From contig CAZCVI010000010.1 in NCBI GenBank assembly GCA_964502145.1, positions 44,068 to 108,067 on the forward strand: a stretch of DNA of 64,000 bases, read 5' to 3'. This document shows positions 7,581 through 63,601 of the stretch, piece after piece (position 1 is the stretch's first letter; the number at the start of each line of letters is the position of its first letter). Both the position numbers and the translations under genes were made by a program. This DNA comes from an uncultured Clostridia bacterium. GTDB taxonomy: Bacteria > Acidobacteriota > Aminicenantia > UBA2199. The notes beneath the pieces are model-generated. The model had not been told where the DNA came from. It did not search any database and saw only the letters and a program-made list of their open reading frames with translations.

Positions 7581-7650
7581 CCAGACTTTTTCCAGATAGT
7601 CCAGTAAGTCCAGATAGTCCAGATAGTCCAGATAGTCCAGATAGTCCAGT
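7581..7650. repeat. tandem array of about 7 x 9-bp units (T/A)NAGTCCAG (= CTGGACNNN on the other strand)
   Basis: Read directly: tccagatagtccagtaagtccagatagtccagatagtccagatagtccagatagtccag. Lies between tRNA-Lys and the nadC start. Confidence 0.9.
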
Positions 7651-7714
7651 TGGAATTAATAGACTTAATTATAATGGTGTTAATTGGATTAATTGGGGGG
7701 AGGGGTAAAAAAAA

Positions 7715-7787
7715 TGATCCCTGAAGGAATCGAACCTTCAACCTATTGATTAAGAGTCAATTGCTCTGCCAATTGAGCTAAGGGACC
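7715..7787 (-). tRNA. tRNA-Lys (anticodon CUU)
   Basis: Reverse complement folds as a canonical cloverleaf: GGTCCCT-TA-GCTC-AATTGGCA-GAGC-A-ATTGA-CTCTTAA-TCAAT-AGGTT-GAAGG-TTCGATT-CCTTC-AGGGATC-A. T-loop TTCGATT, 7-bp acceptor stem, CCA not encoded. Confidence 0.9.
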
Positions 7788-7986
7788 ATCGCTTTAAAGG
7801 TAAAGATAACATAATTCTTACCCATTGTCAACCCCCTCACAAGAAAAAGCCAGGAAAAAATCCAATACCCCATAGAAAAACTGCCAGTGAATGCTATTGC
7901 ATATTTTAAAAATCCGTGTATAATTAAATATTAATAATTTTGTTGTTAAGAGGTGTTAACATTTTAACAAAACAGGAGGAAATATA

Positions 7987-9057
7987 ATGGGTAGAAAGTA
8001 CAATTTTTATGCAGGTCCGGCAATTCTGCCATTGGACGTCATGAAGAAGGCGCAGGAAGAGTTACTGGATTTTAACGGCTGTGGCCTTTCCATCATGGAA
8101 ATCAGCCATCGGTCAAAAGATTTTATGGCCGTGAGTGAGGCCGCAGAAAAAAAGATTCGTTCGTTGTTGGGGGTACCTGATAATTATTCCGTAATGTTCA
8201 TCCAGGGAGGAGCATCACTGCAATTTGGTATGATTCCTATGAATTTGCTAAAGGGTGGCAAGGCAGATTACGTGAATACAGGCGAATGGGCCAAAAAAGC
8301 CATTAAAGAAGCCAAACTTTTCGGAACCGTCAATGAAGTGGCTTCTTCAAAAGATCAAAATTTCAGCTATATCCCCGAAGCCAAGTTTTCCGGCGATGCT
8401 GTGTATGCCCACATCACTTCCAATGAAACTATTGGTGGCATCCAGTACCATTCTTTTCCCAATACAGGGAATGTTCCATTGATTGTTGATATGTCCTCGG
8501 ATATTTTGAGCCGTCGTCTTGATGTCTCTAAATTCGCGGTCATCTACGCTGGCGCACAGAAGAATATGGGACCTGCTGGCGTGACCATGGTCATCATGAG
8601 AAATGATCTGGTGGATTCATGCCCGGACAACCAGGTGGCCATGTTGAACTATAAAATTCACCGTGACAATCAATCCATGTACAACACCCCGCCTTGTTTC
8701 TCAATTTATATCGTGAAACTCGTGTTGGATTGGCTGGAAGCCCAGGGCGGCATGGAAGCGATCGAGGCAGCCAATGATTTGAAAGCCAAGACACTCTATG
8801 AAGCCATCGACAGCATCCCCATGTACAAGGGAACTGCCGCGGTAAAAGATCGTTCCAAAATGAACGTGACCTTCCGCCTCACTCCCGAGGAATTGGAAGA
8901 TAAATTTGTCAAGGGCGCTACCGCTCAAGGTTTGATGGGGTTACAGGGGCACCGGAGCGTCGGTGGCTGCCGCGCCTCCATCTATAACGCCATGTCACTG
9001 GATGGCGTCAAGGAATTGATCCGCTATATGGAAAAATTCTATAACGATCATAAATAA
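7987..9057 (+). CDS. serC: 3-phosphoserine aminotransferase
   Basis: 'YNFYAGPAILPLDVMKKAQEELLDFNGCGLSIMEISHRSKDF' is the SerC N-terminal signature. GGAGGA RBS. Confidence 0.85.
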   Translation: MGRKYNFYAGPAILPLDVMKKAQEELLDFNGCGLSIMEISHRSKDFMAVSEAAEKKIRSLLGVPDNYSVMFIQGGASLQFGMIPMNLLKGGKADYVNTGEWAKKAIKEAKLFGTVNEVASSKDQNFSYIPEAKFSGDAVYAHITSNETIGGIQYHSFPNTGNVPLIVDMSSDILSRRLDVSKFAVIYAGAQKNMGPAGVTMVIMRNDLVDSCPDNQVAMLNYKIHRDNQSMYNTPPCFSIYIVKLVLDWLEAQGGMEAIEAANDLKAKTLYEAIDSIPMYKGTAAVKDRSKMNVTFRLTPEELEDKFVKGATAQGLMGLQGHRSVGGCRASIYNAMSLDGVKELIRYMEKFYNDHK

Positions 9058-22500: not shown

Positions 22501-23735
22501 TAGTCAGTGTCGCGGTTGACCCCATCGGTTTGGCTGTGGGCACTTATACAGCCAATATCACTATCACCGCCCCGCAATCAGAGAATGGTACCCTGATTGT
22601 TCCCGTTACCTTTGTGATCTATGCTCCTGATGCGACCAACGTTCCTTTCGGAGTTTTTGCCACTCCGCTTGATGGTTCCACCGTGATGAGCAGTATTCCG
22701 GTCACCGGGTGGGTGTTGGATGATATTGAAACCACCGGGGTCAAAATTTATCGTGAGCCCGTGGCCGGGGAGGGTAGTGAAAACGTTTACATTGGTGATG
22801 CCGTGTTTGTCGAGGGAGCGCGACCGGATGTGGAAACATCTTATCCCGACACCCCCTTAAATTACCGTGCGGGGTGGGGGTATATGTTGCTGACTAATTT
22901 CCTGCCTGACGGGGGGAACGGAAGCTTCACGTTGTATGCTATTGCCACGGATAAAGAGGGCAATCAGGTGACATTGGGCAGTAAGACCATCATCTGTGAT
23001 AATGCCCATGCTGTGAAACCGTTTGGAGCCATTGATACACCGGCTCAGGGTGGTACAGCCAGTGGCGCAGCTTATGTTAATTTTGGGTGGGCATTAACGC
23101 CGTTGCCCAATACTATTCCAACCGATGGTTCTACCATCACCTTGTGGGTGGATGGTGTGCCTTTGTCCGGGCACCCTGTTTACAACCAGTATCGGTCCGA
23201 TATCGCCAACTTGTTCCCCGGTTACAATAACAGTAATGGGGCCGTAGGGTATTATTACTTAAATACTACCCCTTATGCCAATGGTGTTCACACTATAGCC
23301 TGGTCAGTTAGTGATAGTGGTGGTAACAGTGATGGTATTGGTAGTCGTTACTTCACGATTCTTAATCTCACCAATGCCGATGCCCCAAAAAGCACCCGTC
23401 ACATTCCTGGTAATACCGGTTTTATCGACAGTCTACCAGAATTGGAACAGCAAGCCATTACGATCAAAGAACTGGAACAGGTAGAAATTCCATTGGGCCA
23501 GAATAATGCTACTATCCAAGGTTATTTGAAAATGGAAGACAGGTTCATTTCATTGCCAGTGGGTTCTACATTGGATCAGCAGAGTGGCACATTTTACTGG
23601 TCGGCTGGAGTGGGATTTACCGGGGAGTATCCATTGGTTTTTGTGATTCAGGGTGTTAGTGGCCAATACTATAAAAAAACAGTGGTCATCACCATTGAAC
23701 CCAAATTTAATATCAAGAACGAGTTCAACGAATAA
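19581..23735 (+). CDS. giant secreted/cell-surface repeat protein (signal peptide; 9 tandem ~92-aa FN3-like modules; 2 further FN3-like modules; Ig-like domain; BACON domain; C-terminal beta-rich region)
   Basis: AAGGAG RBS. N-terminal signal peptide 'ILKVVFILFLLTASTALMAQG'. Nine copies of '..ATLNGTVNANG.STTVTFEYG..T.YG.TVTADQSPV.G..NTAVS....GL...TTYHYRVVA.N..GT.YG.D.TFTT'. BACON-like 'LNWNISDNVSWLTCTPGSGINAGIVSVAV'. Confidence 0.8.
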   Translation: MKDYPIIQNILKVVFILFLLTASTALMAQGTPTATTDGASAITAYEATLNGTVNANGSSTTVTFEYGINTNYGRTITADQSPISGSTNTAVSKIIEELIPNTTYHYRVVAVNGNGTAYGDDMTFTTTAIAPVVTTNDADGISSTSATLNGLVNANNTSTTVTFQYGLTTAYGSTVTADQSPVTGMVETAISKTISGLTTATTYHYRAVGVNTGGTTYGEDKTFRTGTPPTAVTNAASAINISGATLNGTVNANGSSTTVTFELGINTSYGSTVTAIQSPVTGSSNTAVSYVKTGLIPNRTYHYRVVAQNVISTIYGSDMTFTTQAAAPTATTIAASDITTTTATLNGTVNAQNDSTTVTFQYGLTTAYGTTVTADQSPVNGVNNTAVSRAIGGLTDATTYHYRVVAQNGTGTTYGLDKTFHTGGSAPTATTVAATAISPTGATLNGTVNANNNETTIIFEYGLTTTYRDAVTATQSPLSTGIDTAVSAALTGLTNNTLYHYRVVAQNTLGTVYGVDLTFRTLIPATAVTNAATAIGPNGATLNGTVNANGVSTTVTFQIGLTTGYGTTFTAPQSPVSGSANTAVNYTVGSLTPNSTYHYRVVAQTFYGTIYGADRTFTTNAIAPTVTTVAATGITYTGGTLNGTVNANNASTTVTFEYGLNTGYGTTVTADQSPVNGVTNTAVSKAITGLTESTTYHYRVVGQNIGGTTNGTDMTFTTLTTTLPIVTTAQISTVTTNSAKSGGNVTADGGEVVTARGVCWATSHNPAISGSHTTNGSGTGLFTSAITGLTDNTVYYVRAYATNNRGTAYGQEVPLKTNSESVSVDITSPVQGATVSGTITIAATATAADTVQPRMVAAVKFYINNILIAEDLSAPYETQWDSHTITDGLCTLKAVAYNQSNESSQDIITFIVRNERSSIGVNRTRLDFGSNGLVCTGAQTLWIENTGTDALNWNISDNVSWLTCTPGSGINAGIVSVAVDPIGLAVGTYTANITITAPQSENGTLIVPVTFVIYAPDATNVPFGVFATPLDGSTVMSSIPVTGWVLDDIETTGVKIYREPVAGEGSENVYIGDAVFVEGARPDVETSYPDTPLNYRAGWGYMLLTNFLPDGGNGSFTLYAIATDKEGNQVTLGSKTIICDNAHAVKPFGAIDTPAQGGTASGAAYVNFGWALTPLPNTIPTDGSTITLWVDGVPLSGHPVYNQYRSDIANLFPGYNNSNGAVGYYYLNTTPYANGVHTIAWSVSDSGGNSDGIGSRYFTILNLTNADAPKSTRHIPGNTGFIDSLPELEQQAITIKELEQVEIPLGQNNATIQGYLKMEDRFISLPVGSTLDQQSGTFYWSAGVGFTGEYPLVFVIQGVSGQYYKKTVVITIEPKFNIKNEFNE
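19671..21726. repeat. intragenic tandem DNA repeats (~276-bp unit x 9) encoding the FN3-like modules
   Basis: Inferred from the nine near-identical protein modules. Boundaries are approximate. Confidence 0.6.
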
Positions 23736-23768
23736 AATAGAATAAAAGAGAATAAAAGAAAAAGATTG

Positions 23769-23834
23769 GCCCACGAATTTACACGGATTATCACGAATGA
23801 TCAAGACCAATTCGTGATAATTCGTGAAATTTGT
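23769..23834. terminator. long imperfect inverted repeat (27-bp arms, 13-nt loop) between the convergent giant gene and the ywbE-like gene; likely bidirectional terminator
   Basis: CCACGAATTTACACGGATTATCACGAA-tgatcaagaccaa-TTCGTGATAATTCGTGAAATTTGTGG. T-rich tracts on both sides. Arms are built from 10-bp-phased CACGAAT units. Confidence 0.45.
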
Positions 23835-23844
23835 GGGGCTCTTT

Positions 23845-24039
23845 TTATAACAACACCACTTGCACTCGCCCCACTGTGCCGTCTTGCAGGCGTACTTTGA
23901 TGCCGTGGGGGTGGTTGGGGGAATTGGTGAGGATATCTTTGACGATTCCTTCTGTTAGTTTTCCTGAGCGTTGATCTTCTTTTTTGATTACTTGTACCCG
24001 TGTTCCTGATTTGATATTGGCGCGTTTTTGTCCATCCAT
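23845..24039 (-). CDS. YwbE-like small protein (DUF2196)
   Basis: 'MDGQKRANIKSGTRVQVIKKEDQRSGKLTEGIVKDILTNSPNHPHGIKVRLQDGTVGRV' resembles B. subtilis YwbE. Start at the internal ATG with GGAGAG RBS. The track ORF extends 18 codons further without an RBS. Confidence 0.55.
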   Translation of the reverse strand: MDGQKRANIKSGTRVQVIKKEDQRSGKLTEGIVKDILTNSPNHPHGIKVRLQDGTVGRVQVVLL

Positions 24040-24350
24040 TTTATACTCTCCTCTCTTGGGGGGATTTTTACCCTCAAAAGGTAATCTTACCACAGTTGTC
24101 GGTATTTTACCAGCGACCTATCACGAAAACAGGTGCGCAGGAAAAACTTTTTATTGTCCATATCGACCATTCTATCCATATCGTCCAAATAAAATTTAAA
24201 ATTATTGGCATCTCCCAATTTTTTTTCAAAATATGCTCAAAAAGTACTAATAAAAGAGTTTCACGGTTAAAAAAAGAGGTAAGAAGCTCCTTTATTTGGT
24301 ATAATATAGTATCGTCGAAAACACCTATCATACCAACAAAGGAGCTTAAA

Positions 24351-24914
24351 ATGATTATATCCGAAAACACAGAAAAAGTCAAAAAAAAAGCGTTAAGGCT
24401 GATCAATAAAATAAATTCGCGGCTTAGCAAGCCTGAAAAGAAGTTCGTTCTTGAGATGACATTGGGAATGGTACTTAGTGGAAGCAGCAATATCAGCGAA
24501 ATCGCACGTAGCCTTCAAGAACCGGTGCCACTAAAACATACTACCAAACGGCTTGAACGGATGCTAACTCACAATCATATCCTTGATATCTGCAATCAAC
24601 TATGCCTCGAAGAGAGTGTGAATAAGATTGATAAAGATACTATCATCGCCTTAGATGGAGGAGACACAGTTCATCCTTACGGGGAGGAGTTTGAGCATAT
24701 GAACCCTGTCCATGATGGTAGTGCGGGTAAAATAGAGAAAGGGTTTTGGCTTAACCAGATCAGTGGGTACAATCCCCACTCCCATGAGACGTTCCCGATT
24801 GCCCTTGATATTTACAGTACAAGTGAGCCCGGCCACAAAAGTGCCAATAATGAATCGCTCAAACTCGTTGATAGTGTTTTGCCTCTCATAAAATTGGAGT
24901 CGATGGAAAGGTAA
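24351..24914 (+). mobile_element. truncated IS4-family-like DDE transposase gene (N-terminal ~187 aa only)
   Basis: Strong RBS AAAGGAG before ATG 24351. 'IIALDGGDTVHPYGEEFEHMNPVHDGSAGKIEKGFWLNQISGY' resembles the first-Asp region of IS4-type DDE_Tnp_1. The ORF ends after 187 aa with no continuation in any frame. No terminal inverted repeats found. Confidence 0.4.
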
Positions 24915-39472: not shown

Positions 39473-39475
39473 GGG

Positions 39476-40057: not shown

Positions 40058-40181
40058 ATCACACTCCGACACTAGCGAAACATCGTTTTATGAAATTCAC
40101 TGCTTTTGTCTCTATACTTAGCTTCTTCATGTACAGAACTTTACCACCCTGTAAAAAAAATGTCAAGTTTTTTCCGATTTT

Positions 40182-43530: not shown

Positions 43531-43583
43531 GTGGACTAACTGGACGATATGGACTGAGTGGACAATGTGGACGAGAGGTGGAT
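43531..43583. repeat. tandem 9-bp array NTGGACNNN x5-6 in the pylD-pylSn intergenic region
   Basis: gTGGACtaa cTGGACgat aTGGACtga gTGGACaat gTGGACgag aggTGGAT, read directly. Confidence 0.85.
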
Positions 43584-43653
43584 TTTTGGAAAAGTTTTTG
43601 GGCTGACAGAGGCACTGTGAAGATGGGTTTAAGATAATGCGATCTAATGTTTT

Positions 43654-47624: not shown

Positions 47625-47700
47625 ATTGCCTGGGGAATTATGGGAATGGGAGTTATGGGAATTATGGGAAGAATGGGGGTTATGGGAAAAGAGGGGTAGT
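47625..47700. repeat. tandem 9-bp array (TTATGGGAA-like units x ~7) in the pylSc 5' leader
   Basis: gaattatgg gaatgggag ttatgggaa ttatgggaa gaatggggg ttatgggaa, read directly. Confidence 0.8.
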
Positions 47701-47916: not shown

Positions 47917-48618
47917 TTATCGGAGAATACGTTGGCGGCAATTAAATGTCTGGCATGTGTCGCAGAAAGAATAATCATTATCGAAATCATGAATACTGGC
48001 AGGCCCTGCGACCAATACACCGGAAATAGATTTTATAGGCACCATTAAAAAACTGGGATTGAGTTGGATACCAATCGCCTCGGGTTGGAGATACTGGAAT
48101 AATTTTCCCTGGCCACTGATGTGCCAACCGCAGTAACCAGGACTGTAAAGCAATACTTTTAGTCCTGCTCTGGGTTCAGGCAAGCGGTTTAAAAAGAGTG
48201 TCTCTGTACAAAGGGCTGCTTTATCGGCACCATAAGAGGCGATGGTGTCCAACATATACCCCAACGCAAATCCATTGGCCTGGGTTTTCATGAGTTGATC
48301 GATTTTGGCACTCACGGCGGGTCCGAGGGTGCAGGCAAACAAACCCAATTGATGGGCACGGGGGAAAATATGTTCCAACGGTGTATCCTTTTCATTCTGG
48401 CCGAGACCGGGATATATCAGGCTGAATTGGGTGCTGGAAAGATCAGCTATCAAACCGATGGGAGCAGCCAATTGCATAAACAACTCTGCTGCGGACCGAT
48501 AGAGAGCCTTGACCCGTTCTGGGGGTTGGGTGCCACGGGGTATCCCTTGCATGAAGAAAATTTCCTCTTCATCGGGGGCTATAACTTCAATAGATAGATT
48601 AAATGTTTCTTTATTCAT
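47917..48618 (-). CDS. MetH activation-domain-like protein (Met_synt_B12-like), tentative
   Basis: 'LLYSPGYCGWHISGQGKLFQYL...LNPSFLMVPIKSISGVLVAGP' resembles the SPGY...W...P.KS.SG core of the methionine-synthase reactivation domain. Start overlaps the stop of the MttB-like gene. Confidence 0.4.
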   Translation of the reverse strand: MNKETFNLSIEVIAPDEEEIFFMQGIPRGTQPPERVKALYRSAAELFMQLAAPIGLIADLSSTQFSLIYPGLGQNEKDTPLEHIFPRAHQLGLFACTLGPAVSAKIDQLMKTQANGFALGYMLDTIASYGADKAALCTETLFLNRLPEPRAGLKVLLYSPGYCGWHISGQGKLFQYLQPEAIGIQLNPSFLMVPIKSISGVLVAGPASIHDFDNDYSFCDTCQTFNCRQRILR

Positions 48619-50099
48619 TAGTATCCGGTGACATCAGGAAGTGTGCTGATACCGTGGCGGTGGGCTTCGGCTTTCATGATTTGGATTAATTGCTCTTTGA
48701 TAGCGGGATTGAGGGAAGATGGCTGATAGGATTCGAGCAGGTTTAACATCTCCTTGTGCGCCCGTTCGCCCAGGGTCAAACTGCCTTCTTCCTGCCAGCG
48801 GGACTGGTTGGTGCGATCAATGATGGGGCCGGGAAAATAATGTTCGGCTTTAAGAAAACGGCGGGTATGTTTGGATATCAACAGGTGCTGGTCTTTCAAT
48901 AATTCCTGGTACCTGGGCACAATGGGGAAATCCTCCTGGGGATCAATACCATTAAGCATACGAAACACCATGCCGCATATTTCATTGTCAACAATCAATT
49001 TTTCTATACTAAATGTATTGACAAAATCGAGCATCCCGGGGCCGGAAATACTATTGATCCCGGATAAGGCGGCCATAGTGGCACCCATGGCTGTTTCCAA
49101 ACCGGCCTGGGCGTCCAGAAGCTTGGCATCGCTCAACGCGATGTAAGCCTGGGTGGGAATACCGAGGTATTTCCCGATTTCATTGTAACCGCAATCCAGC
49201 ATCTGGGTTTCTATGGCGCCCAGCGGCGTGGTTTCGTAGCGGACATCAAAGGAAGCAGGGGCACCACCATATAATAATGGCGTGCCCGGGTTACTTAATT
49301 GACTGATTACAATACCGCTGAGTGTTTCGGCGGTGTGCCCCACCAATGAACCCACGAGGGTAACTGGAGCGGTGAAACCAGCCAGGGGCATGGAAATCAA
49401 TTCGATGGGAATACCACTTCTGCCGCAATCGACAATGTCCTGGCATATTCTGGCACTCCATTTTAACGGGGTGGTGGAACAGCAGGAAAAAATGGTCAGG
49501 GGTTTTGCTTTTAATGCAGTTTCATTGCCCCGGACAGCCACCTGCATCTCTTTCATTACTTTGAAGCCCTCGGCACTGAAGGTACCGGTAACCACGGGTT
49601 TTTCTCCGAAAAGAAGGTTCAGGTAGAGGCGGTAGCTGTCGGATATTTTTTCACTGACATCGGCGGGAACAAAGGCGGTACTCTGGGCGGCAATATGCTT
49701 TAACTGGGCGGTCACCTTGACAAAACGAATATAGTCGGCGGTATTGGGCTGGCGCGACTGTTGGGTAGTGGAATCCAAGATGTGCAAGGCGGAAGAAGCG
49801 GGGGTAAAATGAATGGTGTAACCGGAAAAATCATGGGTCTCATTGCCTTTGACATCATATAACTTGAAGGTAGGGGGCACACTGTCCAACGCGAGGTCGA
49901 TCATAGCGCCGGTGATAAACACATTGTGGGCATCGGAATGGGGCACGGGTTCGACGGTGGCACCAAAATCGGATAGCATAAGGACTGTCTTTTTATCGTA
50001 AATTTTTATACCGATAGTGCTTAGAATGTCGCGTGCTTCAGATATAATACGTTCGATCAACTCTTTGTTCAAAAATCTTAGATTGGGTCTGACTGCCAT
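48618..50099 (-). CDS. MttB-superfamily (trimethylamine / quaternary-amine : corrinoid) methyltransferase, no in-frame amber codon
   Basis: ~493 aa. N-terminal 'LRFLNKELIERIISEARDILSTIGIKIYDKKTVLMLSDFGATV' and overall length fit PF06253. Continuous ORF with no internal TAG. Start set at ATG 50099 (GGAGAA RBS). The track ORF starts at TTG 50141. Confidence 0.65.
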   Translation of the reverse strand: MAVRPNLRFLNKELIERIISEARDILSTIGIKIYDKKTVLMLSDFGATVEPVPHSDAHNVFITGAMIDLALDSVPPTFKLYDVKGNETHDFSGYTIHFTPASSALHILDSTTQQSRQPNTADYIRFVKVTAQLKHIAAQSTAFVPADVSEKISDSYRLYLNLLFGEKPVVTGTFSAEGFKVMKEMQVAVRGNETALKAKPLTIFSCCSTTPLKWSARICQDIVDCGRSGIPIELISMPLAGFTAPVTLVGSLVGHTAETLSGIVISQLSNPGTPLLYGGAPASFDVRYETTPLGAIETQMLDCGYNEIGKYLGIPTQAYIALSDAKLLDAQAGLETAMGATMAALSGINSISGPGMLDFVNTFSIEKLIVDNEICGMVFRMLNGIDPQEDFPIVPRYQELLKDQHLLISKHTRRFLKAEHYFPGPIIDRTNQSRWQEEGSLTLGERAHKEMLNLLESYQPSSLNPAIKEQLIQIMKAEAHRHGISTLPDVTGY

Positions 50100-50166
50100 A
50101 ACATTGTTCTCCATAGGGTGTGGCCGTTTAATCCGGGCCAATTACGGGGTTTTGGGGGTTGAGATT

Positions 50167-51243
50167 TTATTGTTGTACTTGTTGCCGTTTCCATTGACGA
50201 TAGCGTTTCATATATTCCTCGGCGATGGTGGGGGAGTCCATGCCGAGCTCTTTGGCATAGGTTGAAACACACCATCGCAGGTAGCCTGGTTCGGGTAGGT
50301 CTTCGAATCGTTCTAACTCGATATTGACTAAAATTTTATAGGAGATTTTTGATGTTCTTGCCAGATCATGGATGCCTAAGCCCATTCGTTCGCGATATTT
50401 TTTAAAGGTTCGGCCTTTAATAATAGCGGCTCCTCCTGTCTCATAATTTTCCATGTTCGGGTCTATCAGCGTGTCTTCCATGGGGTTGGTGGCGGAGGGA
50501 TCGATCACTCGTATCATGGTGGAATAGGGTGAGCGGCCATTTTCCAATTCCGGGGGGATATCTTCCGGTTGTGTGGGTTCAGGGAATATGTATTCGGGTA
50601 GTTCTAATGGGTCTTCTGCAATGAAGAGTTCCTGGGTATCTTGGAAATTATTTATTTTTAAGGGTTCCTGTGTGTTCAGCAGTTCCGGTGTTGGGAACGC
50701 CTCTAGTACTTCTTCTGGTTCTGGTTCTCCCAGATCAGGGATTTCTGGAAGTGCAATTTGTTCTGGTAACTCCAGATGCTCGGGGATAGTGGGGGGCATC
50801 CAGGTGTCACTACGTTCCACGATTGCAGAACTCTCAATTTTTTCTTCTATTTTTTCTCCTACTATTTCTTCTGATATTTCTTCTAATATTTCTTCTTCTT
50901 TAAAGAATAGGGGAGCATAGGGATCATTCAGCTCTTCTTCAATATCTTCAAAATCATCGACATCGAAAATTTCTTTGGCTGTTTTTTCTTTTTCGAACTT
51001 CTCTTTTTCAATGCGGTCTTTTTCAACGAGGTAATGAAAAAGTCCAGAATACGCCTCGTGGATGTCGGTCATGATTTTTTGTTTATCTTCTTCGGGGAAT
51101 TCGTCATCTATAGCTTCCATGACGATGGAATCAGTGGAAAAGACTTTTTTCAGGCGTTCATAGGCTGTTTTTATTTCAGCCATCGAGGGATTTTCTTCTA
51201 GCTCAAGGATATTCAAATATTGTTTGTATTTTTTTTCATCCAT
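50167..51243 (-). CDS. acidic (Glu/Asp/Pro-rich) protein with C-terminal RodZ-type helix-turn-helix (HTH_25/XRE-like)
   Basis: C-terminus 'GRTFKKYRERMGLGIHDLARTSKISYKILVNIELERFEDLPEPGYLRWCVSTYAKELGMD'. Start at internal ATG 51243, just after the parA-like stop. Confidence 0.4.
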   Translation of the reverse strand: MDEKKYKQYLNILELEENPSMAEIKTAYERLKKVFSTDSIVMEAIDDEFPEEDKQKIMTDIHEAYSGLFHYLVEKDRIEKEKFEKEKTAKEIFDVDDFEDIEEELNDPYAPLFFKEEEILEEISEEIVGEKIEEKIESSAIVERSDTWMPPTIPEHLELPEQIALPEIPDLGEPEPEEVLEAFPTPELLNTQEPLKINNFQDTQELFIAEDPLELPEYIFPEPTQPEDIPPELENGRSPYSTMIRVIDPSATNPMEDTLIDPNMENYETGGAAIIKGRTFKKYRERMGLGIHDLARTSKISYKILVNIELERFEDLPEPGYLRWCVSTYAKELGMDSPTIAEEYMKRYRQWKRQQVQQ

Positions 51244-52159
51244 TGTCGATATCCGGAATTTTAACCTGTTTGTCTTCGAGCAGATTAAGCACGATCTCAC
51301 GAAGTTCGTTGGAGGTGGAGGCGGGGGAAATGAATTGGGGAGTAGAGCTGGAGTGTTTAACAAACTTCCAGAAAAAATCGGTGTATTGAATGAAACCGCT
51401 CAATCTGGCATCGATTCCGAAATATTTTGTCAGTACACTTTTCACGGCGCTACCTGTTTCCAGGTGCTCGCTGTTTTTGATCTGGTTGACAATAATATAA
51501 ATCTTAAACTCGGCCAATGCTTTTTCAACCAGGGTGCGAATTTCCGGTGAAATTTCCATGATATGCTGGATCAACTCTTTAATGCTGGAGATTTTATTGG
51601 GGAGGCGGTTGTCCCATGCTTTTTTGGCAACATCCTTAAGTCCATGATCGCCCAGCAAGATGTTTAATTTGCGGAACAGCACCTTTTTGATAAAATGATA
51701 GAGATTTTCAATAGAGGTGATTTCTGGCAGGATGACGACGATCATTTTATCGGCCATCAAGAAGGTATCAATCGTATTGTGGCCTGAACCGGCACCGAGA
51801 TCAATGAGCACATAATCGGCGCTGATATTCTTGATATGCCGGTACAACTTTAATTTTTGAGTTTGTTTGAGGCCGATAGTATTGAGGGAACGGACATCGC
51901 CAGTCACAAAGCGCAGGTTGGGAATGGCGGTATCCACGATGATTTCGCTTAAGGGAACTTTTTTTTCAAAGAAGTCGGTCAATGAATATTTGGGTTTTGG
52001 AACCTTGAGAAAGGAGTGCAGGTTGGCACCGCCTAAATCGCCATCAATCAGGGTAACCCGTTTGCCCAGATGGGCCAGATTCAATCCCAGGGAGCTGGTG
52101 ACGAAGCTTTTTCCAGTACCGCCTTTACCGCCGCCAATAGCCCATATTTCGGAATTCAT
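51236..52159 (-). CDS. ParA/MinD-family P-loop ATPase
   Basis: Deviant Walker A 'IGGGKGGTGKSFVTSSLG'. 'LIDGDLGGANL'. AAGAGG RBS. Confidence 0.75.
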   Translation of the reverse strand: MNSEIWAIGGGKGGTGKSFVTSSLGLNLAHLGKRVTLIDGDLGGANLHSFLKVPKPKYSLTDFFEKKVPLSEIIVDTAIPNLRFVTGDVRSLNTIGLKQTQKLKLYRHIKNISADYVLIDLGAGSGHNTIDTFLMADKMIVVILPEITSIENLYHFIKKVLFRKLNILLGDHGLKDVAKKAWDNRLPNKISSIKELIQHIMEISPEIRTLVEKALAEFKIYIIVNQIKNSEHLETGSAVKSVLTKYFGIDARLSGFIQYTDFFWKFVKHSSSTPQFISPASTSNELREIVLNLLEDKQVKIPDIDNG

Positions 52160-52331
52160 TGTTTTCTAACCTCTTTTTAAATCACGCTATGTTGTGTTTT
52201 GTTTGTTTCGTCTGTTTCGTTCGTTTCTTTTTCAAAAAAGTTGTATCTATTTATTTTGACAAAAAACATACAGGATGTCAACCCCTAATGAGATGGATGA
52301 TTGTTATTGTTGGGCAAGGGTGCGCCAGTAT

Positions 52332-53408: not shown

Positions 53409-53903
53409 ATTGGGTTCTCCTTTTTTTAAGTTAATTTAAAAAAAAATTATTTTCATTAAAATTAGATTATATATAATCCTTGTCTTTTTAGCAAATGGTA
53501 TTTTTGAATTGATGTTATTTTTTCAGAGGAAATCTTCTACGGGATATTCCATGGTAGGGGAGGTCTTTTTTATTGAATTTGCACAATTTTTAGGATTGAC
53601 ATTATATATTCAGTTTTTGTCGCATTTGAAAGAAATTGCTGCTGGTAAGAAGAGAGAATTTTTAATTCTACTTGCAATAGGCTGAAAAATTGATTGATAT
53701 TGGAAGAGAAGATGTAGATGATCAAGAACCAAAAACATCAAGACTGGACCGCTCCTGGACGGATTGTGCATTTAAATCGGAGGAGGAATTCGTTGATTCT
53801 GTCCCGGCTCAGTAGACCTCCCGAAAGTGAGAGGATTACGTGCCATGCAAGAAACCCATCTGAGAAATAGTTATAACTCTGTCGATTTGCACAATATTTA
53901 GGA

Positions 53904-58212: not shown

Positions 58213-60606
58213 CTACTTTGATGTCTCAATCTTGAGTTGTCGGGGCAACGACACCAGATGAATACCACCCCTGGGAGCGGTGGCGATATAAGGGATATTT
58301 TGTTGCTTGTAATTGCTGATCACTTTTTTATGCGGAAAGCCGAAACGATTGCCTTGACCATAAGAGAAAACAGCCAGACGGGGTGTAGTGCATTTTAAGA
58401 ATTCTGGGCTGGAAGAAGTGGCGCTCCCATGATGGGGAACTTTGAGCACATCGACCTGCAAGTTGGAACACTCTGTGTTTACCAATTGGCTTTCCACTTC
58501 TTTTTCAATGTCTCCAGTAAATAAAAAGGAGTGGTGTGGGTCTGAGATTTTAAGCACCTGGGAATGGTTGTTGTGGGGCTTAACATCGGTGATCACCTGG
58601 GTGGGGAAGAACCATTGAATAGTACAACCACCAACTTTTTTTATCCTCGGCGCGGTGGTCCATACCAGGGTGGTGCTACTGGGAACTTCACGCCGCAACG
58701 CTTGATATAAAGGGTCTTCCGGTGTGTCGGAAGCGAGCCACAACTCCTCGGGTTTTAATATCCGCAAGATTTCGGTAAGGCCGCGGATATGATCGGCATG
58801 GTAATGGGAAACCGCGACCCAACGGATATGAATTCGTTGTTGCAGCAGAAAGGGCAGCACGATGTTGCGCCCTACTTGGAAATCGGAATAATATACGCCA
58901 CCGCCATCAATAAGCAATGCATCGCCACCAGGAAAGACAATAACCTGGGAATCCCCCTGCCCTACATCCAGAAAAAAAACTTCGAGGTTGGCGGGAGTAT
59001 AAAAAAAGATACTCAACGACATCCATACACAGAGAAGAAGAACAATAGTGGCGGCGGAAATTTTTTGTACCCAGGAGCGGCATACGGGAAGACAAGCAAA
59101 GGAGATTAATACGAACAACACGAGGGCAAAAGGTGGCGCGGCACGGTAGATGGTCAGGTCTACGACATCGGAGAAGATGTAAGAGATATAGAAGAAAAGG
59201 TTTAGCAATGGATCGATCACTATCAATAGGTACTGCGATAGCACGGCGGATAAGGGCGCGAGTGGAATCAATAAAAAACCGAGACCGAGGATAACGGCGG
59301 TCAGGGGCACCAGTAGTAAGCCAGCAAAAAATCCGCTGAAAGAGTAGCGTTTAAAAAAATAGAGGGACAAGGGTAAAGCGATAATGGCGGCAGATAGATT
59401 GGCGGATAGGGTTTCACCGAGATATGAGCGTTCTTCTCTAAACATTTTCCAACGGGTCAACTTGAAAAGGGGCAAAAATATTCTACGTCCAATTACAATG
59501 GTGACGGTTAGGGCAAACGTTAAGATAAACCCGGCATCAAGAAACTCGGCAGGGTTACGGGCCAACAGGATTACGCCGCAAAAGGAGATTATATTATATA
59601 TATCGACATCCAGGTAAAGTATCTTGGCGATAAAAATCAAAATAGCCATGATTACGGCCCGTTCGGCGGATATTTTAAAACCGGAAAGCACCAGGAATAC
59701 GATTAATACCAGGGCGGTTAAAATATAGCGTTTTCTGAAGGATACGTTAACGAGTTTTAAGAGTGCGAGGCAGCCAATGGCGATGATACCGATATGGGCG
59801 CCGGAAATAGCCAACAGATGATAAATACCCGCATTGATCAGTTGTTCCTTTTGCAGGTCTTCCAGTTCTCCCCGATCACCCAGTAACATGGCCAAGAGTA
59901 AAACACCTTTTTTATCCAGTACACTTTCCTCTACTGAAGGGGTGGTGTTGTTGCGGTATTTTTTTTCAATGGTCTGGCGTATCTGGTTTCGCCATGTTCC
60001 GATCACGCGCCAAAACCAGGGAGCGGGGGCTGCAAGAGTAATCAATTGCGCGGATTTGCAAAAGCTATTGAAATGGGTTCTTTTGAGCAGGAGAAGATTC
60101 TCTATAGGATTAGTGAAGACGTTTTTGTTCCCGGTGTTTCTGTACATGCGGGTATCAATGATAATATGATCGCCCCGGTTCAGGTACACCAGATTGCCGT
60201 TTACTTCGATACGTACATTAAAGGAGACGGCAATTTTTTTTTGCTGGTATTCCAGATTATAGGCGTGGAGGAAAATAACGGAGTGATCCGGGTGGATTTC
60301 GGGGTAATCTTTCAATTGGCCAAACAGGGAGATGGCGCGGTCGTCGGGAATAGTGGCGGTTGTTTCGATGATCTGGTAAAAGGTCTCTTTTTCCTTGATA
60401 AATTGGCCGGTGATTAATAAAACAATGGCCAGTGCTATCAAGATGTAGCCGTGGGTGTACTTTTTAAAGTAATAGAAGACTAGTGCTGCAACAATGAAAA
60501 AAATTAAAAGAGAGTGTACGATCTCATAACCAATTATATCCAGGTGATGAACGAGGGCCAGCATGGCTAAGGTGCCTAAAAAGATGGGGGTGAAGAGATT
60601 TTTCAT
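58213..60606 (-). CDS. comEC: DNA internalization competence protein ComEC/Rec2 (DUF4131 + competence + metallo-beta-lactamase domains)
   Basis: Polytopic. 'LLGDRGELEDLQKEQLINAGIYHLLAISGAHIG'. MBL 'VSHYHADHIRGL', 'VPHHGS'. Stop is TAG. Confidence 0.75.
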   Translation of the reverse strand: MKNLFTPIFLGTLAMLALVHHLDIIGYEIVHSLLIFFIVAALVFYYFKKYTHGYILIALAIVLLITGQFIKEKETFYQIIETTATIPDDRAISLFGQLKDYPEIHPDHSVIFLHAYNLEYQQKKIAVSFNVRIEVNGNLVYLNRGDHIIIDTRMYRNTGNKNVFTNPIENLLLLKRTHFNSFCKSAQLITLAAPAPWFWRVIGTWRNQIRQTIEKKYRNNTTPSVEESVLDKKGVLLLAMLLGDRGELEDLQKEQLINAGIYHLLAISGAHIGIIAIGCLALLKLVNVSFRKRYILTALVLIVFLVLSGFKISAERAVIMAILIFIAKILYLDVDIYNIISFCGVILLARNPAEFLDAGFILTFALTVTIVIGRRIFLPLFKLTRWKMFREERSYLGETLSANLSAAIIALPLSLYFFKRYSFSGFFAGLLLVPLTAVILGLGFLLIPLAPLSAVLSQYLLIVIDPLLNLFFYISYIFSDVVDLTIYRAAPPFALVLFVLISFACLPVCRSWVQKISAATIVLLLCVWMSLSIFFYTPANLEVFFLDVGQGDSQVIVFPGGDALLIDGGGVYYSDFQVGRNIVLPFLLQQRIHIRWVAVSHYHADHIRGLTEILRILKPEELWLASDTPEDPLYQALRREVPSSTTLVWTTAPRIKKVGGCTIQWFFPTQVITDVKPHNNHSQVLKISDPHHSFLFTGDIEKEVESQLVNTECSNLQVDVLKVPHHGSATSSSPEFLKCTTPRLAVFSYGQGNRFGFPHKKVISNYKQQNIPYIATAPRGGIHLVSLPRQLKIETSK

Positions 60607-60710
60607 CTCATTCGCACGGTTTAATCCAACTGTATATGCATTCTTTCATGCCAGTATTATAAAGAAGATGTTAAATTATTTCAAGTGGGGGAATGCATTT
60701 TGGAATGGTT

Positions 60711-60756
60711 AACTGGACTATCTGGACTGACTGGACACACTGGACCAACTGGATAG
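60711..60756. repeat. tandem 9-bp array NNCTGGACN x5
   Basis: aaCTGGACt atCTGGACt gaCTGGACa caCTGGACc aaCTGGATa, read directly. Between comEC and the DUF2293 gene. Confidence 0.85.
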
Positions 60757-60811
60757 GTAAAGTTTTTCTTGAAAAGGTGTTTGGATGGAGGCGGGATAAT
60801 ATGTGGTGAAT

Positions 60812-61531
60812 TTAGGATATTGGGGTGTCTTGTTTTACCCAGCGGGACAATAGTTTGTTCACTATGGGTGCTACTTGTTCCCTCGCTTCACAGCGGTCTA
60901 TGCCACGACTGAGTAATTTATCGTATGGGGTTTTTTGATGGCGGATATGGGCGATTACCGCCAGTTTTATCGCTTCAGGGGAGAAGTGTTTGGCCTGAGA
61001 AGTACGACCAATTCGACCGCTGTATTTTTGACAGGCATGGTGGGTGATGATTGTCGCTTTTCCTTTAGGGCAGTTGGGGTAGAGTTCTTTGATACGGGTG
61101 GAGAATTGGTCCACATATATTTGATCCATTTCGGATCGTATTAACACGTTTCGTTCTTTGCGACGTTCGCGGGCGTCTTTATCAGCGAAGCATTCTTGTT
61201 CTGCTTGCTCTATAGCAGCTTCTTCTACCAGCAGTCCTTGTCTTTCGTATTGTTTGCGTGCTCGGCTCCATTTTAGTACGACGGCAGAGAGGGCGGAGTA
61301 TTTGCGGGAACGGCGGGTTAAAGCAGCATCGCCAGAAGGAAGAAAAATAAGGTGATCGAGATCGGCACAGGAAAGGCAGTTGGCACCTTTTTCACCGTTC
61401 AGAAAAATCCAGGCATTAGGTCCGAGGGTTTCGCCACATTCATCGCAGGTGGTATCCTTGCTTTGGGTGATAAATACTTTTAAATCAAACTGTTGTTCTA
61501 CTTTATCTACAGGTTTTTTTGGTTGTTCCAT
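60812..61531 (-). CDS. DUF2293-domain protein with N-terminal Cys cluster
   Basis: C-terminal 'LAVIAHIRHQKTPYDKLLSRGIDRCEAREQVAPIV' fits the DUF2293 pattern. N-terminus 'CDECGETLGPNAW...CLSCADLDH'. Confidence 0.5.
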   Translation of the reverse strand: MEQPKKPVDKVEQQFDLKVFITQSKDTTCDECGETLGPNAWIFLNGEKGANCLSCADLDHLIFLPSGDAALTRRSRKYSALSAVVLKWSRARKQYERQGLLVEEAAIEQAEQECFADKDARERRKERNVLIRSEMDQIYVDQFSTRIKELYPNCPKGKATIITHHACQKYSGRIGRTSQAKHFSPEAIKLAVIAHIRHQKTPYDKLLSRGIDRCEAREQVAPIVNKLLSRWVKQDTPIS

Positions 61532-61784
61532 GATAATGGGATTATATCATACAATGGCGAATCCGTTCAAGTTTCATCATAAAATCCCAGCAATTCTCAT
61601 TTTGCGTATTATTTCTGTGAACACTCAACGGCCATCAATTTGGCATTCTGCTCCATTCTGGGAATCCCGGTCATCGGATAATCCGACGCATCACGGTTCA
61701 GAAACTATTTCTTCCTATATTCTTTTTGGGTTGCCATCTTTTGAAAATAGCATCGTTTTCCAGTACAATAATCCTTTAGTCTTT

Positions 61785-63407
61785 TTATAGATCGGTGCGA
61801 CCTATACCGATGATAAAACTGGTGACTGTTTTATCGCCTGCGGGATAATCCTGGGGTATACATTCATCTCCGACGGGTGTCCGGGTATCAAAAATCACCA
61901 GATATCCTTCCTGGCAAAACTCGGTGGCCAGATATTTGCTGGCTAACTGGGCAATGCCCTGGTTAAGTAAACGGGTGATACTTTTCTGGCGATTCATTTT
62001 GGTCTCGATAATATATCTTTTTCCCTTGTAAGATAAGATAATATCCATCACCCCGAACCCGGACCTGACTTCATAACGCAACTCGCCGCCACCACCTTTG
62101 ACAAACTGGTAAAGCCACGCGGTCAATAGGAACTGGCCGGTTTTCTCAGTGGGCCGCTTCTCTTTATAAAAAGCCACCACACCGATTTGTGAAATATATT
62201 GATCGAAATCCAAGAGGATGTTTTTCATATCCAAGCGCTGGCCCGGTAATTCATATTTTTGCGGGGGTATCACATCGTTGGCGTCTACTTCTTTGAAAAA
62301 CGCATTCACGTAACGTGCTTTATAAATGGAATTGGCCACGACGGCTTTACCGTCGTGATTCTTGATTAAACCGAACTGCTCCAGCCATGATTGATCTTTA
62401 TTTTCGGGATTAAATTCGACATGATCAAACACGATTTCAATGAAGGTCTCTTTATACTGGTGCGCTTTCTCGGAAAGATTGTCGAAATGCTGATTATTTT
62501 CTTTGAGCAAAAGCTGGATGGCTTTATCCACATCTTGGTCATTGATCGGTTCCACCGTGTTGGGTTTGACATCCATGGTTAAAATGGTTCCCAAGCGATT
62601 GACCAGCCAGGGTTGCCCTGCCGTTTCGGCATGGACTTTTTGTACAGCCTCATTGGTGAAGGGCTGGTTCGTTTCTGCGGTGTATTGGGCATAGAGATCA
62701 TGGACATTTTGCAGCGAAAAAGGAGGAAGATTCACATGATCGGCGATATTAAAGGGCGATACGCCGCCCACCACGAGCTTGGTAATATTACGAATGCCAA
62801 TCAAACCGACGGAATAGAGCGCTTTGGGTTGATCTGATTTGTATTTCAAATATAACGTTCGTATTGATGCGAGAAAATCCTCTAACTCTTTGATTGGAAT
62901 CCCGTCAAACTCGTCGATAAGAACGACGATTTTTTTGAATTGCAGTATCTCGTTTAATCCCTCGAACAGCAACCTGAAAGAGATGTTGTCGTCTAAATGG
63001 TGATTCTTTAAAAACTGGAATACGGTATTGGCCTTATCACACCCGACCTCTTTTAGTCGATGGGTTAATTGTGTATACAGATCCGTTTCAATCAATGAAT
63101 AAAACTCTTTCTTACTTAGATTTTTATAGTCCTGAAAACTCAGTAATATAATCGCATAAGTCTTATCCCGGTGTAATTCTGTTCTCACTCGTTCAAGAAA
63201 GGTGGTTTTGCCACTTTGTCTGGGAGCAAAAATTGAAAAATACCGGCCATGGTCGATCATGGTTTGAATATTTTTCTTATCCGTGTTGGTGACCCCTTCC
63301 AAAATAACATAATAGGCGTCTTCTGGATGGACTGTACCTGATTTTTCAAACAGTCGTTTTGGCTTTTGATATGGTTTATTGGTGGCATTCAATTGAGTTT
63401 TATTCAT
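61785..63407 (-). CDS. predicted AAA-ATPase (PF09820-like) fused to a PD-(D/E)xK nuclease-like C-terminal domain
   Basis: 'FSIFAPRQSGKTTFL' Walker A. 'VVLIDEFD' Walker B. C-terminal 'YEVRSGFGVMDIILSYKGKRYIIETKM' is PD-(D/E)xK-like. Confidence 0.55.
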   Translation of the reverse strand: MNKTQLNATNKPYQKPKRLFEKSGTVHPEDAYYVILEGVTNTDKKNIQTMIDHGRYFSIFAPRQSGKTTFLERVRTELHRDKTYAIILLSFQDYKNLSKKEFYSLIETDLYTQLTHRLKEVGCDKANTVFQFLKNHHLDDNISFRLLFEGLNEILQFKKIVVLIDEFDGIPIKELEDFLASIRTLYLKYKSDQPKALYSVGLIGIRNITKLVVGGVSPFNIADHVNLPPFSLQNVHDLYAQYTAETNQPFTNEAVQKVHAETAGQPWLVNRLGTILTMDVKPNTVEPINDQDVDKAIQLLLKENNQHFDNLSEKAHQYKETFIEIVFDHVEFNPENKDQSWLEQFGLIKNHDGKAVVANSIYKARYVNAFFKEVDANDVIPPQKYELPGQRLDMKNILLDFDQYISQIGVVAFYKEKRPTEKTGQFLLTAWLYQFVKGGGGELRYEVRSGFGVMDIILSYKGKRYIIETKMNRQKSITRLLNQGIAQLASKYLATEFCQEGYLVIFDTRTPVGDECIPQDYPAGDKTVTSFIIGIGRTDL

Positions 63408-63507
63408 GCTCTAATCATATTTCAATCAATGGAATTTGTCAAGTAAGGCCTGCTTAACCTAAATCCACCACCAAGGTTTAAAAAGAACCCCGGATAACCG
63501 TGGCACG

Positions 63508-63601
63508 CTGGACTATCTGGACATACTGGACTTACTGGACAAGCTGGAAAAATCAACGGTTTTGTGAAATCCAGTAAGTCCAGAATGTCCAGATAGTCCA
63601 G
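63508..63601. repeat. palindromic double array: 4 x CTGGACNNN, ~23-bp centre, then 3-4 x NNNGTCCAG
   Basis: gCTGGACtatCTGGACataCTGGACttaCTGGACaagctggaaaaatcaacggttttgtgaaatCCAGtaaGTCCAGaatGTCCAGataGTCCAG. Upstream of the AAA-ATPase gene. Confidence 0.85.

Follow-up and report, generated by a model that had tools for sequence, protein, structure and literature searches.

Phased TGGAC nonamer arrays, candidate operator sites, form a dispersed intergenic repeat family in an uncultured Clostridia-like bacterium

AbrB sites consist of TGGNA motifs with 4-5 bp AT-rich spacing, in direct, inverted or everted arrangement, and their multi-motif footprints span 27-80 bp (PMC3738160). The ParB centromere of pCXC100 is built of nine unspaced 9-bp repeats with the consensus AGNTGGAAA (NTGGAAA), each bound by one dimer, cooperatively (PMC3074162). 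The omega protein (ParB-pSM) of pSM19035 needs at least four contiguous repeats and accepts them in any orientation; its heptad arrays lie just upstream of strong promoters, where the protein mini-filament represses and also serves as a centromere (PMC9499535). The STRR of heterocystous cyanobacteria, in turn, are lineage-specific short tandem repeats dispersed over intergenic DNA, with unknown function (PMC2670836). We describe here arrays of 9-bp units in the window (the whole 64,000-nt stretch of DNA that was analysed) and its surroundings. A preliminary description recognised no counterpart for the 9-bp period, for which AbrB sites (PMC3738160) and the pCXC100 ParB centromere (PMC3074162) are in fact close precedents.

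The window contains 17 matches to TGGACNNNNTGGAC, against 0.14 expected from shuffled sequence; all 17 lie within four intergenic loci and none in coding DNA, and TRF reports a period of 9 at each locus. These are the four loci listed in the preliminary description, all present where it placed them. Two more TGGAC arrays were found in the 9 kb to the left of the window (one at L365:8620-8672, C-rich and G-poor in the sense direction), giving six loci in 73 kb, or about one per 12 kb. The arrays comprise four to seven contiguous 9-bp units without gaps (five to seven copies in the main family), and all of them lie between genes, outside ORFs and outside −35/−10 spacing. The flanking genes (nadC, pylSn, comEC and those for an AAA_35 ATPase, an ABC transporter and mevalonate decarboxylase) indicate a chromosomal housekeeping context. 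The arrays are a dispersed, non-coding, lineage-specific repeat family.

Although an invariant (C)TGGAC core had been proposed, the true core is TGGA, which is present in 37 of 37 units; the following base is C in only 31 of them, changing to T or A toward one end of each array, and the preceding base is C in only 27 (G in 6, A in 4). The spacer is far less conserved than the core, with 0.36-0.71 bits and 76-89% A/T at positions 7-9; the 9-bp register is strict and the spacer sequence free but A/T-rich. An invariant TGGA next to spacers of such low information points to selection acting on the DNA. Some units recur at several loci (CTGGACTAT ten times, CTGGACTTA four times), and decayed units read NTGGAAAAA. 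Single arrays are direct repeats, without hairpin, terminal inverted repeats, target-site duplication or common flanks, and occur on either strand, in addition to one convergent pair (A4, below). Their orientation relative to flanking genes is not constant, as the preliminary description held, but it is not random either: TGGAC lies on the G-rich strand in each of the five single arrays, and in four of these the strand with the mRNA sense of the neighbouring genes carries GTCCA.

Array A1 (7581..7650, reverse strand) contains six good CTGGACWWW units and two degenerate ones (CTGGAAAAA, and TGGAAT after an 11-bp step). It lies downstream of a tRNA-Lys gene (7714-7788, reverse strand) and ends 13 bp upstream of the −35 element of the nadC promoter (7539..7567, reverse strand; sigma70-like TTGACA-17-TATGAT, 11/12; gene at 6633-7487). 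A2 (43531..43592, forward strand) belongs to an RTGGAC subfamily and reads GTGGACTAA CTGGACGAT ATGGACTGA GTGGACAAT GTGGACGAG followed by degenerate units; every spacer is different and all cores are intact. The preliminary description correctly placed it in the pyl operon, between pylD and pylSn (PylD, PylSn, PylSc, PylB, and PylC all score above NCBIfam cut-offs); the start codon of pylSn follows 40 nt downstream. A3 (60713..60757, forward strand) has five units between a DUF2293 gene and comEC, and its sharp end is 26-28 bp upstream of the −35 element of the comEC promoter (60656..60684, reverse strand; sigma70-like TTGAAA-17-TATAAT, 11/12; gene at 58213-60606).

The fourth locus is the convergent pair. 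Its left arm (A4L, 63508..63552, forward strand) reads CTGGACTAT CTGGACATA CTGGACTTA CTGGACAAG CTGGAAAAA, and the first 32 nt of its right arm (A4R, 63566..63601, reverse strand) are 97% complementary to the left; the palindrome of arrays that the preliminary description called perfect is thus an inverted pair but a near-perfect one, with 30 nt between the 32-nt arms. Folded as single-stranded DNA, A4 reaches −33.9 kcal/mol (z = −9.7). The promoter of the AAA_35 ATPase gene (63414..63442, reverse strand; sigma70-like TTGACA-17-TATGAT, 11/12; gene at 61785-63407) is 65 bp from A4L. The product of the DUF2293 gene, which lies between A3 and A4, was considered as a possible binder. It matched nothing among solved structures or in the defence library, and we dropped it, since the proximity of the two arrays is statistically unremarkable. 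A two-unit trace reported at 53743-53759 has 11-bp spacing, out of register, and is best taken as chance.

Seven sites in the 73 kb agree with the sigma70 consensus at 11 or more of its 12 positions, five of them intergenic. All five intergenic sites fall in array-bearing spacers, downstream of the array, whose edge is 13, 16, 26, 65, or 72 bp away (hypergeometric p ~6e-5, for 28 spacers of which 6 have arrays). A2 alone has no strong promoter beside it. The arrays are located upstream of the −35 element and not over the promoter, so repression would require spreading or looping. Near-consensus promoters are typical of genes under negative control.

Other 9-bp arrays accompany the main family. 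A degenerate member (24156..24191, reverse strand), which on the forward strand shows GTCCA, GACCA, ATCCA, and GTCCA with a period of 9 bp, occupies a divergent intergenic region. A TGGGA array (47631..47696, forward strand), in which TGGGA and an A/T-rich 4-bp spacer are repeated in about seven units, lies in the pylT-pylSc spacer, antisense to the genes, with a G-free, C-rich sense RNA; its TGGGA-ATTA pattern matches the AbrB consensus exactly, and the nearest relative has two units of this array (TGGGAGTAGTGGGAG) at the same pylT-pylSc position. A third kind, with GAAAC and 4 bp in four units (52196..52231, reverse strand), separates a promoter-like site from the start of the gene for a ParA/MinD-like ATPase (51236-52159); the sole ParA-like gene thus adjoins the GAAAC array, not a TGGAC array. 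All three of these arrays, as well as the strong promoters adjacent to the main family, had gone unnoticed in the preliminary description. Among the nine non-coding short-core arrays in the 73 kb, periods of 6-8 or 10-13 do not occur: all nine have a period of 9, as would suit a binder family sharing one footprint.

We consider the arrays to be, with a probability of roughly 45%, cooperative operator or silencer sites for an oligomerising DNA binder. One 9-bp unit, TGGA(C) and its free A/T-rich spacer, would be contacted by a single subunit or dimer of a small DNA-binding protein that oligomerises cooperatively and is likely of the swapped-hairpin AbrB/SpoVT or the ribbon-helix-helix (RHH) type. 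Such a protein would coat 45-63 bp of duplex just upstream of intrinsically strong sigma-A-type promoters and control them, most plausibly through repression or silencing by occlusion or spreading, or through insulation from upstream read-through. A 9-bp step would turn successive sites by about −51 degrees, and seven units (63 bp, six helical turns) would complete one left-handed turn; the largest array seen has seven units. A DNA-level role as sites for a sequence-specific binder had already been suggested, and it best fits arrays that are non-coding and promoter-adjacent, have an invariant core and a free spacer, and are found in both orientations, once as a convergent pair; the binding itself, the fold of the binder and the sign of regulation are inferred. 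Against the operator reading stand the fifth core base, which is C and differs from that of the AbrB motif TGGNA, the location of the arrays outside the promoter itself, and the lack of a strong promoter at A2. No AbrB or MraZ gene was found by tblastn in the window or at any locus examined, Pfam, NCBIfam, and PADLOC identified no RHH or AbrB domain in neighbouring ORFs (about 74 kb of the genome covered), and TGGNA pairs at 4-bp spacing are not in excess outside the arrays.

The main rival, which we regard as unlikely on balance but worth serious attention, is a selfish or neutral dispersed repeat, REPIN/MITE-like or STRR-like, that persists only in harmless spacers. It would spread through a trans-acting transposase recognising TGGAC repeats, or by slippage and gene conversion, and the arrays would lie next to promoters because insertion favours certain sites, such as the under-wound DNA ahead of a strong promoter. 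Several observations also fit this explanation, including the common units, the near-identical arms of A4 (a REPIN-like inverted doublet), a possible replication-strand polarity (TGGAC on the G-rich strand would be expected of single-strand transposition at the replication fork), and the absence of the arrays from relatives. In 87 kb of relatives (PheT 66-82% identical), where about seven would be expected, we found no TGGAC array, and their pylD-pylSn spacer has none; the family is hence lineage-specific. RAYT-like Y1_Tnp genes do occur in the relatives; the inverted repeats on either side of them are their own and unrelated to the TGGAC arrays. Short-read contigs also break inside the arrays, as expected of a multi-copy repeat (extension further along the genome gave only short contigs ending in an array). 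However, the single arrays lack the structural marks of a mobile element listed above, no Y1 or other transposase adjoins any array (nor did tblastn find one in 74 kb of this species), the combination of free spacers and invariant core demands continued selection on the core, and a sequence-specific binding protein is needed here too. A mobile or selfish origin, proposed earlier as a remnant of a miniature mobile element, is a live rival. The suggestion of slippage-prone contingency tracts has no support in the assemblies compared: no copy-number difference was seen among five of them, all from one project, and the arrays are outside both coding DNA and −35/−10 spacing.

An element acting in RNA, such as a Rho-loading or termination site, a stability signal in the 3′ region of the upstream gene (GUCCA/UCCCA in the sense strand, C-rich) or a GGA-rich antisense decoy (for CsrA, for example), appears improbable. 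The GTCCA sense strand of four of the five single arrays would suit it, as would the C-rich, G-poor sense sequences of A2, the L365:8620-8672 array and the TGGGA array, and at four of the six loci no intrinsic terminator separates the upstream gene from the promoter that follows. But A1 is oppositely oriented, A4 lies past a canonical terminator and contains both orientations, and the CTGGAC subfamily is not richer in C than in G. A scan at Rfam gathering thresholds identified the tRNA-Lys and a PYLIS element only, with nothing at the arrays, and we found no promoter driving the antisense direction at the array loci.

Still less probable is a polar motif of replication or segregation, read on one strand like KOPS/SRS or Chi, or used as a primase or fork landing site. 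The polarity of all five single arrays, and also of the degenerate and TGGGA arrays, tracks the sign of the GC3 skew, and the skew switch near 24.5 kb falls within the stretch over which the orientation changes; but with only five to seven arrays (p ~0.03-0.06) this trend is confounded with gene orientation, and the link to promoters is left unexplained. Known polar motifs are single octamers that are found inside genes too, not intergenic arrays.

Coding explanations fare worse. Small genes for Trp-Thr-x repeat peptides (e.g., MVNWTIWTDWTHWTNW...) are effectively refuted: short ORFs do cover A2, A3, and A4 (those of A2 and A3 have a FLEK-like tail in common), and a gene caller predicted a 48-aa ORF over one array, but the one frame without stops is open by construction, the W-T-x frame is interrupted by a stop codon in the array at L365:8620-8672, ribosome-binding sites are lacking, and the frames called differ between arrays and lie on both strands at A4, which makes the arrays non-coding. 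A collagen-like or other coding 9-nt repeat was likewise rejected, as the arrays are all intergenic, in contrast to most database matches to the pattern, which are coding. An assembly or sequencing artefact, suggested at most by the tendency of short-read contigs to break at arrays, has a negligible chance of being the explanation, since A2, A3, and A4, with unique flanks, are recovered unchanged in Logan and ENA assemblies made independently (as many as five, all from one project). Nor is the family unique to the window, as two arrays lie beyond it.

A genome-collection scan for four TGGACN4 units, in which the host genome is not among the matches listed, yielded about half coding repeats (collagen-like or perfect tandem) and otherwise non-coding RTGGAC arrays in other phyla: among the matches listed, Cloacimonadota, Hydrogenedentota, Lentisphaerota, Chlamydiota, and Chlorobiota, with convergent pairs in 9/9 cases seen and ordinary genes between the paired arrays. 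We do not count these as the same family, because their orientation to genes is inconsistent, no strong-promoter link was found at L124 (the one multi-array locus checked), and no Y1 transposase is nearby. Matches in a metagenome scan (CTGGACWWW x3) were mostly perfect or coding repeats, none related to the window; viral scans gave coding repeats only; and the literature searched held nothing relevant on a TGGAC motif.

A broader reading, doubtful and slightly more so than the selfish repeat, is a chromosome-wide control layer: a few hundred phased TGGAC arrays (an extrapolation from about one per 12 kb) upstream of strong promoters, oriented with the replication strand, coated by an RHH- or AbrB-like filament protein that silences or insulates, and recently spread as a repeat family. 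A still wider version, drawn from the convergent RTGGAC arrays in the five other phyla, would have a like system recurring across phyla. If the arrays are operators, they mark a regulon whose promoters are intrinsically strong, in an uncultured Clostridia lineage that uses pyrrolysine; it would include nadC, comEC, the ATPase/DUF2293 pair, the ABC transporter and the mevalonate pathway. The arrays would then also provide a very clean, repeatable DNA target, (TGGAC N4)5-7, for finding the regulator, and would be an example of operator arrays multiplying as a repeat family; if selfish, they would be a new type of dispersed prokaryotic repeat made of phased nonamers only. In practice, they fragment the short-read assemblies of this organism.

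Compared with known systems, the arrays are neither iterons nor DnaA boxes (the unit is 9 bp vs. 17-22 bp, the best match to TTATCCACA is 6-7/9, and no rep or dnaA gene is nearby); the preliminary description had not recognised them as either. Like REP/REPIN elements, they are extragenic, dispersed and lineage-specific, and A4 is an inverted doublet; but a REP unit is an imperfect palindrome, whereas of the direct repeats here only the A4 doublet folds. With STRR they share short tandem units dispersed over many intergenic loci of one lineage, although STRR have essentially identical 7-bp units, no variable spacer and a host in another phylum; we know of no report of a promoter link for STRR. 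The pCXC100 centromere, recognised by an RHH ParB, has the same TGGA core, 9-bp period and at least four uninterrupted repeats, but it is a single plasmid locus of an actinobacterium, linked to parAB; its repeats are weakly conserved and do not form inverted pairs, whereas the arrays here are chromosomal, occur about once every 12 kb and have no linked par operon. As in the AbrB operators of Bacillus subtilis, a TGG-centred pentamer and a 4-bp A/T spacer give 9 bp centre to centre, in all orientations, with multi-motif sites at promoters of a Firmicute (PMC3738160); the main core here, however, is TGGAC and not TGGNA, the latter being confined to the TGGGA array and to decayed TGGAA units, and AbrB sites are usually bipartite and irregular, unlike five to seven perfectly phased units. 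Finally, omega arrays have a 7-bp unit of different sequence and are plasmid-borne, but they too consist of at least four contiguous short repeats, in any orientation, just upstream of strong promoters; if the TGGAC arrays are operators, they would be, genome-wide and on the chromosome, what the omega and ParB-RHH arrays are on plasmids.

The 9-bp arrays are real, with strong statistics behind them: they form a family of phased nonamers that is specific to this lineage and tied to strong promoters. Head-to-tail units with a TGGAC core can be read at all four intergenic loci named in the preliminary description (A1, 7581-7650; A2, 43531-43592; A3, 60713-60757; A4, 63508-63601), and two counts bear this out: TGGACNNNNTGGAC has 17 matches in the window (0.14 would be expected by dinucleotide shuffling), all of them within the four loci, and Tandem Repeats Finder called period 9 at each locus. 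The two-unit “trace” at 53743-53759 is most likely chance (its spacing is 11 bp, out of register). The family is not unique to the window, since two more arrays (L365:3536-3590 and L365:8620-8672, in sequence of the same species) lie in the 9 kb to its left, giving about one locus per 12 kb. We aligned 37 units of this one species, from the window arrays and the two outside: all 37 have TGGA, 31 of them follow it with C, and the base preceding the core is C in 27, G in 6 and A in 4; the other three positions are A/T-rich and else free. Every array has one sharp end, usually opening with CTGGACTAT behind an A/T run, and an opposite end that decays to TGGAT, and then to TGGAA with an A run. A4 is indeed a pair of inverted arms (32 nt each, with 30 nt between), which are 97% complementary rather than the perfect palindrome first described. 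The same unit can turn up at several loci (CTGGACTAT ten times, CTGGACTTA four times), which favours copying over independent origin.

A1 lies 3′ of tRNA-Lys and 5′ of nadC; A2 in the pylD-pylSn spacer, thus inside the pyl operon as had been proposed; A3 between a DUF2293 gene and comEC; and A4 5′ of an AAA_35 ATPase gene, directly behind a canonical terminator. L365:3536-3590 separates a PFK gene from an ABC-transporter gene, and L365:8620-8672 a DUF4340 gene from a mevalonate-diphosphate-decarboxylase gene. A3 and A4 flank a two-gene unit (60812-63407), whose AAA_35 ATPase has weak similarity to anti-phage proteins and whose DUF2293 protein has an N-terminal CxxC...CxxC motif; neither matches any solved structure. 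The pyrrolysine cluster of the window is of bacterial type (tRNA-Pyl, PylSc, PylB, PylC, PylD, and PylSn), its members all exceeding NCBIfam cut-offs. An Rfam PYLIS_3 element (49037-49136, 42.6 bits) lies inside an mttB-like trimethylamine methyltransferase gene (48618-50141), so this ORF must hold an in-frame UAG. Between pheST and the pyl operon is a cluster (35169-41945), partly conserved in relatives, of genes for two Ser/Thr kinases, one PP2C phosphatase, two small FHA-domain proteins, and one FHA-trypsin-like protease. A 743-aa ORF (28930-31161), with long imperfect 24/27/51-nt coding repeats at 29328-30186, adjoins MoxR-type AAA ATPase, DUF58, and BatA/VWA-like genes; its Gln/Gly-rich repeat product is also found in relatives. 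The nearest named relatives by PheT are Ruminiclostridium species (∼52% identity), and metagenomic relatives share 66-82%, so the host belongs to an uncultured Clostridia-like lineage.

We scanned the window and the 9 kb to its left (73 kb) for sigma70-type promoters with at least 11/12 matches. Five of the six loci are directly followed by an 11/12 match that points into the downstream gene, at 13 bp (A1), 16 bp (L365:8620-8672), 26 bp (A3), 65 bp (A4), and 72 bp (L365:3536-3590) from array edge to -35; the exception, A2, has no strong promoter. Seven such sites exist in the 73 kb, five of them intergenic, and all five stand in array-bearing spacers (28 spacers, 6 with arrays; hypergeometric p = 6e-5). 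The DNA between array and promoter showed no similarity between loci, so array and promoter are not one mobile cassette.

The reading that we prefer, at a probability of roughly 0.45, is that the arrays are cooperative operators or silencers for a candidate oligomerising duplex-DNA binder, which would act on the adjacent strong promoters. Its main support is that the core is kept while the spacer varies, that either orientation is tolerated, and that the arrays are linked to promoters; the same features favour the earlier suggestion of sites for a sequence-specific binder. The binding protein and its fold are inferred, as is the direction in which it would regulate. The proposed mechanism is plausible but unproven.

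The main rival, that the arrays are a selfish repeat family, is the less likely of the two but a serious one. It accounts for the units shared between loci, the A4 doublet, a possible replication polarity, and the restriction to a single lineage, but the single arrays form no hairpin and have neither terminal repeats nor target duplications, and tblastn found no transposase in 74 kb of this species. In 87 kb of relatives (L361 and L372, PheT 82% and PylD 62% identical; L368-L371, PheT 66-71%) we found no TGGA arrays versus about seven expected at this genome's density, and their pylD-pylSn spacer is short and without an array; thus, the family expanded in this lineage. These array-free relatives come from the samples SRR21620660 and JGI 3300083231, 3300041086, and 3300041080. 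The relatives carry repeats of other kinds: RAYT-like Y1 transposase genes with inverted REP-like repeats at their flanks (L368:13064-13291, L368:13322-14874, and L370:11241-12300; for example, GGGGTCAGGC/GCCTGACCC), a 21-bp-period array (TGGAATCCTGGTTTTGGGATT, ∼10 copies) beside a RAYT-like gene in L368, and a 7-bp CGAAATC array (L368:20958-21000). The operator and selfish readings are not exclusive, since an array of operators can itself multiply as a repeat.

The remaining explanations are all weaker than these two. The best of them is a role at the RNA level. In its favour, 4/5 single arrays read GTCCA in the mRNA sense of the flanking genes; against it, no array has a match in Rfam. The orientation relative to flanking genes, described before as not constant, is thus reversed at A1 and alike in the other four. 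A replication-polar role comes next. Third-position GC skew of the + strand is negative left of ∼24.5 kb (L365 included) and, between 25 and 64 kb, strongly positive irrespective of gene strand, and TGGAC is on the G-rich strand in 5/5 single arrays, as well as in a degenerate array (24156-24191) and a TGGGA array (47631-47696). With few loci, it is suggestive only that strand composition predicts array polarity better than gene sense. The skew flips, and gene orientations converge, at ∼24000-25100; candidate explanations are a rearrangement breakpoint, a replication landmark, and an assembly join. The same region has several 10-bp repeats (23730-23835), the degenerate GTCCA array, and a 187-aa transposase-like ORF fragment (24351-24914) with no Pfam or NCBIfam match. 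Firmicute genes usually lie on the G-rich leading strand; at 25000-64000, the opposite holds, nearly all genes being on the C-rich strand (sense GC3 skew -0.1 to -0.5), as is pheST of the relatives.

Array-encoded peptides are less probable still, and the arrays are non-coding. The W-T-x frame offers tempting peptides at A2-A4, but a stop (TGG ACT TAA) falls inside the L365:8620-8672 array, ribosome-binding sites are absent, A4 would need peptides on both strands, and the gene caller picked differing frames at different arrays; the openness of the GGA-CNN-NNT frame is uninformative, since a stop is impossible by construction. An artefact is the least probable explanation, A2, A3, and A4 being identical in Logan and ENA assemblies of the same species; six short-read contig ends (L363, L364, both ends of L366, L373, and L374) lie inside arrays, a pattern typical of multi-copy repeats. 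The source samples belong to the SRR7760391-94 project.

A scan of the 73 kb for any short core (at least 4 repeats, periods of 6-13 bp) yielded nine non-coding arrays, every one with period 9: seven with TGGAC, one with TGGGA, and one with GAAAC. The TGGGA array (∼7 units with an A/T-rich 4-bp spacer) lies in the pylT-pylSc spacer; two units stand at the same place in the nearest relative (L361:2938-2956) and none in a more distant one, and the spacer is only 22 nt in L368. The pylSc leader RNA (sense) is G-free and C-rich for ∼70 nt, resembling a Rho-loading site. The GAAAC array (52196-52231; 4 units, each with 4 further bp) occupies the leader of a ParA/MinD-like ATPase gene (51236-52159), with a TTGACA-type promoter-like site on one side and the gene start on the other; the next gene encodes 398 aa with an HTH_25 domain at the C-terminus.

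A pattern scan of a genome collection, keyed to the TGGAC core, returned many coding repeats and, among the matches listed, RTGGAC arrays that are non-coding and vary in their spacers, from Cloacimonadota, Hydrogenedentota, Lentisphaerota, Chlamydiota, Chlorobiota, and others; since the scan required TGGAC, had no control core, and is represented by the matches listed, no special status can be claimed for TGGAC. Array pairs among these matches are convergent in 9/9 cases, with short centres at L070:3363-3455, L070:5691-5783, L043:1334-1417, L074:1611-1695, and L098:164-304 (Chlamydiota, Hydrogenedentota, and Lentisphaerota), and one locus additionally has a TCCCA array. The L070 pairs lie within a larger 27-bp inverted repeat, upstream of effector-like genes. 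The examined arrays of other phyla were not oriented consistently to genes, had no link to a strong promoter at the one multi-array locus scanned, and had no Y1 transposase nearby; we keep them as a lead and do not count them in the host's family.

Among known systems, AbrB of B. subtilis recognizes TGGNA motifs at 4-5 bp AT-rich spacing (direct, inverted, or everted), multiple motifs spanning footprints of 27-80 bp (PMC3738160); omega of pSM19035 requires at least four contiguous heptads, in free orientation (PMC9499535); and the STRR sequences of cyanobacteria are 7-bp tandem repeats, dispersed and without a known function (PMC2670836). Each of these, and also the pCXC100 ParB centromere of nine 9-bp repeats without spacers (PMC3074162), has some defining feature that the arrays lack, but the geometry of the arrays is like that of the AbrB sites, the pCXC100 centromere, and the omega heptads, and their dispersal is like that of STRR; they vary on kinds already known, namely arrays that serve as operators or centromeres, and short tandem repeats that are dispersed.
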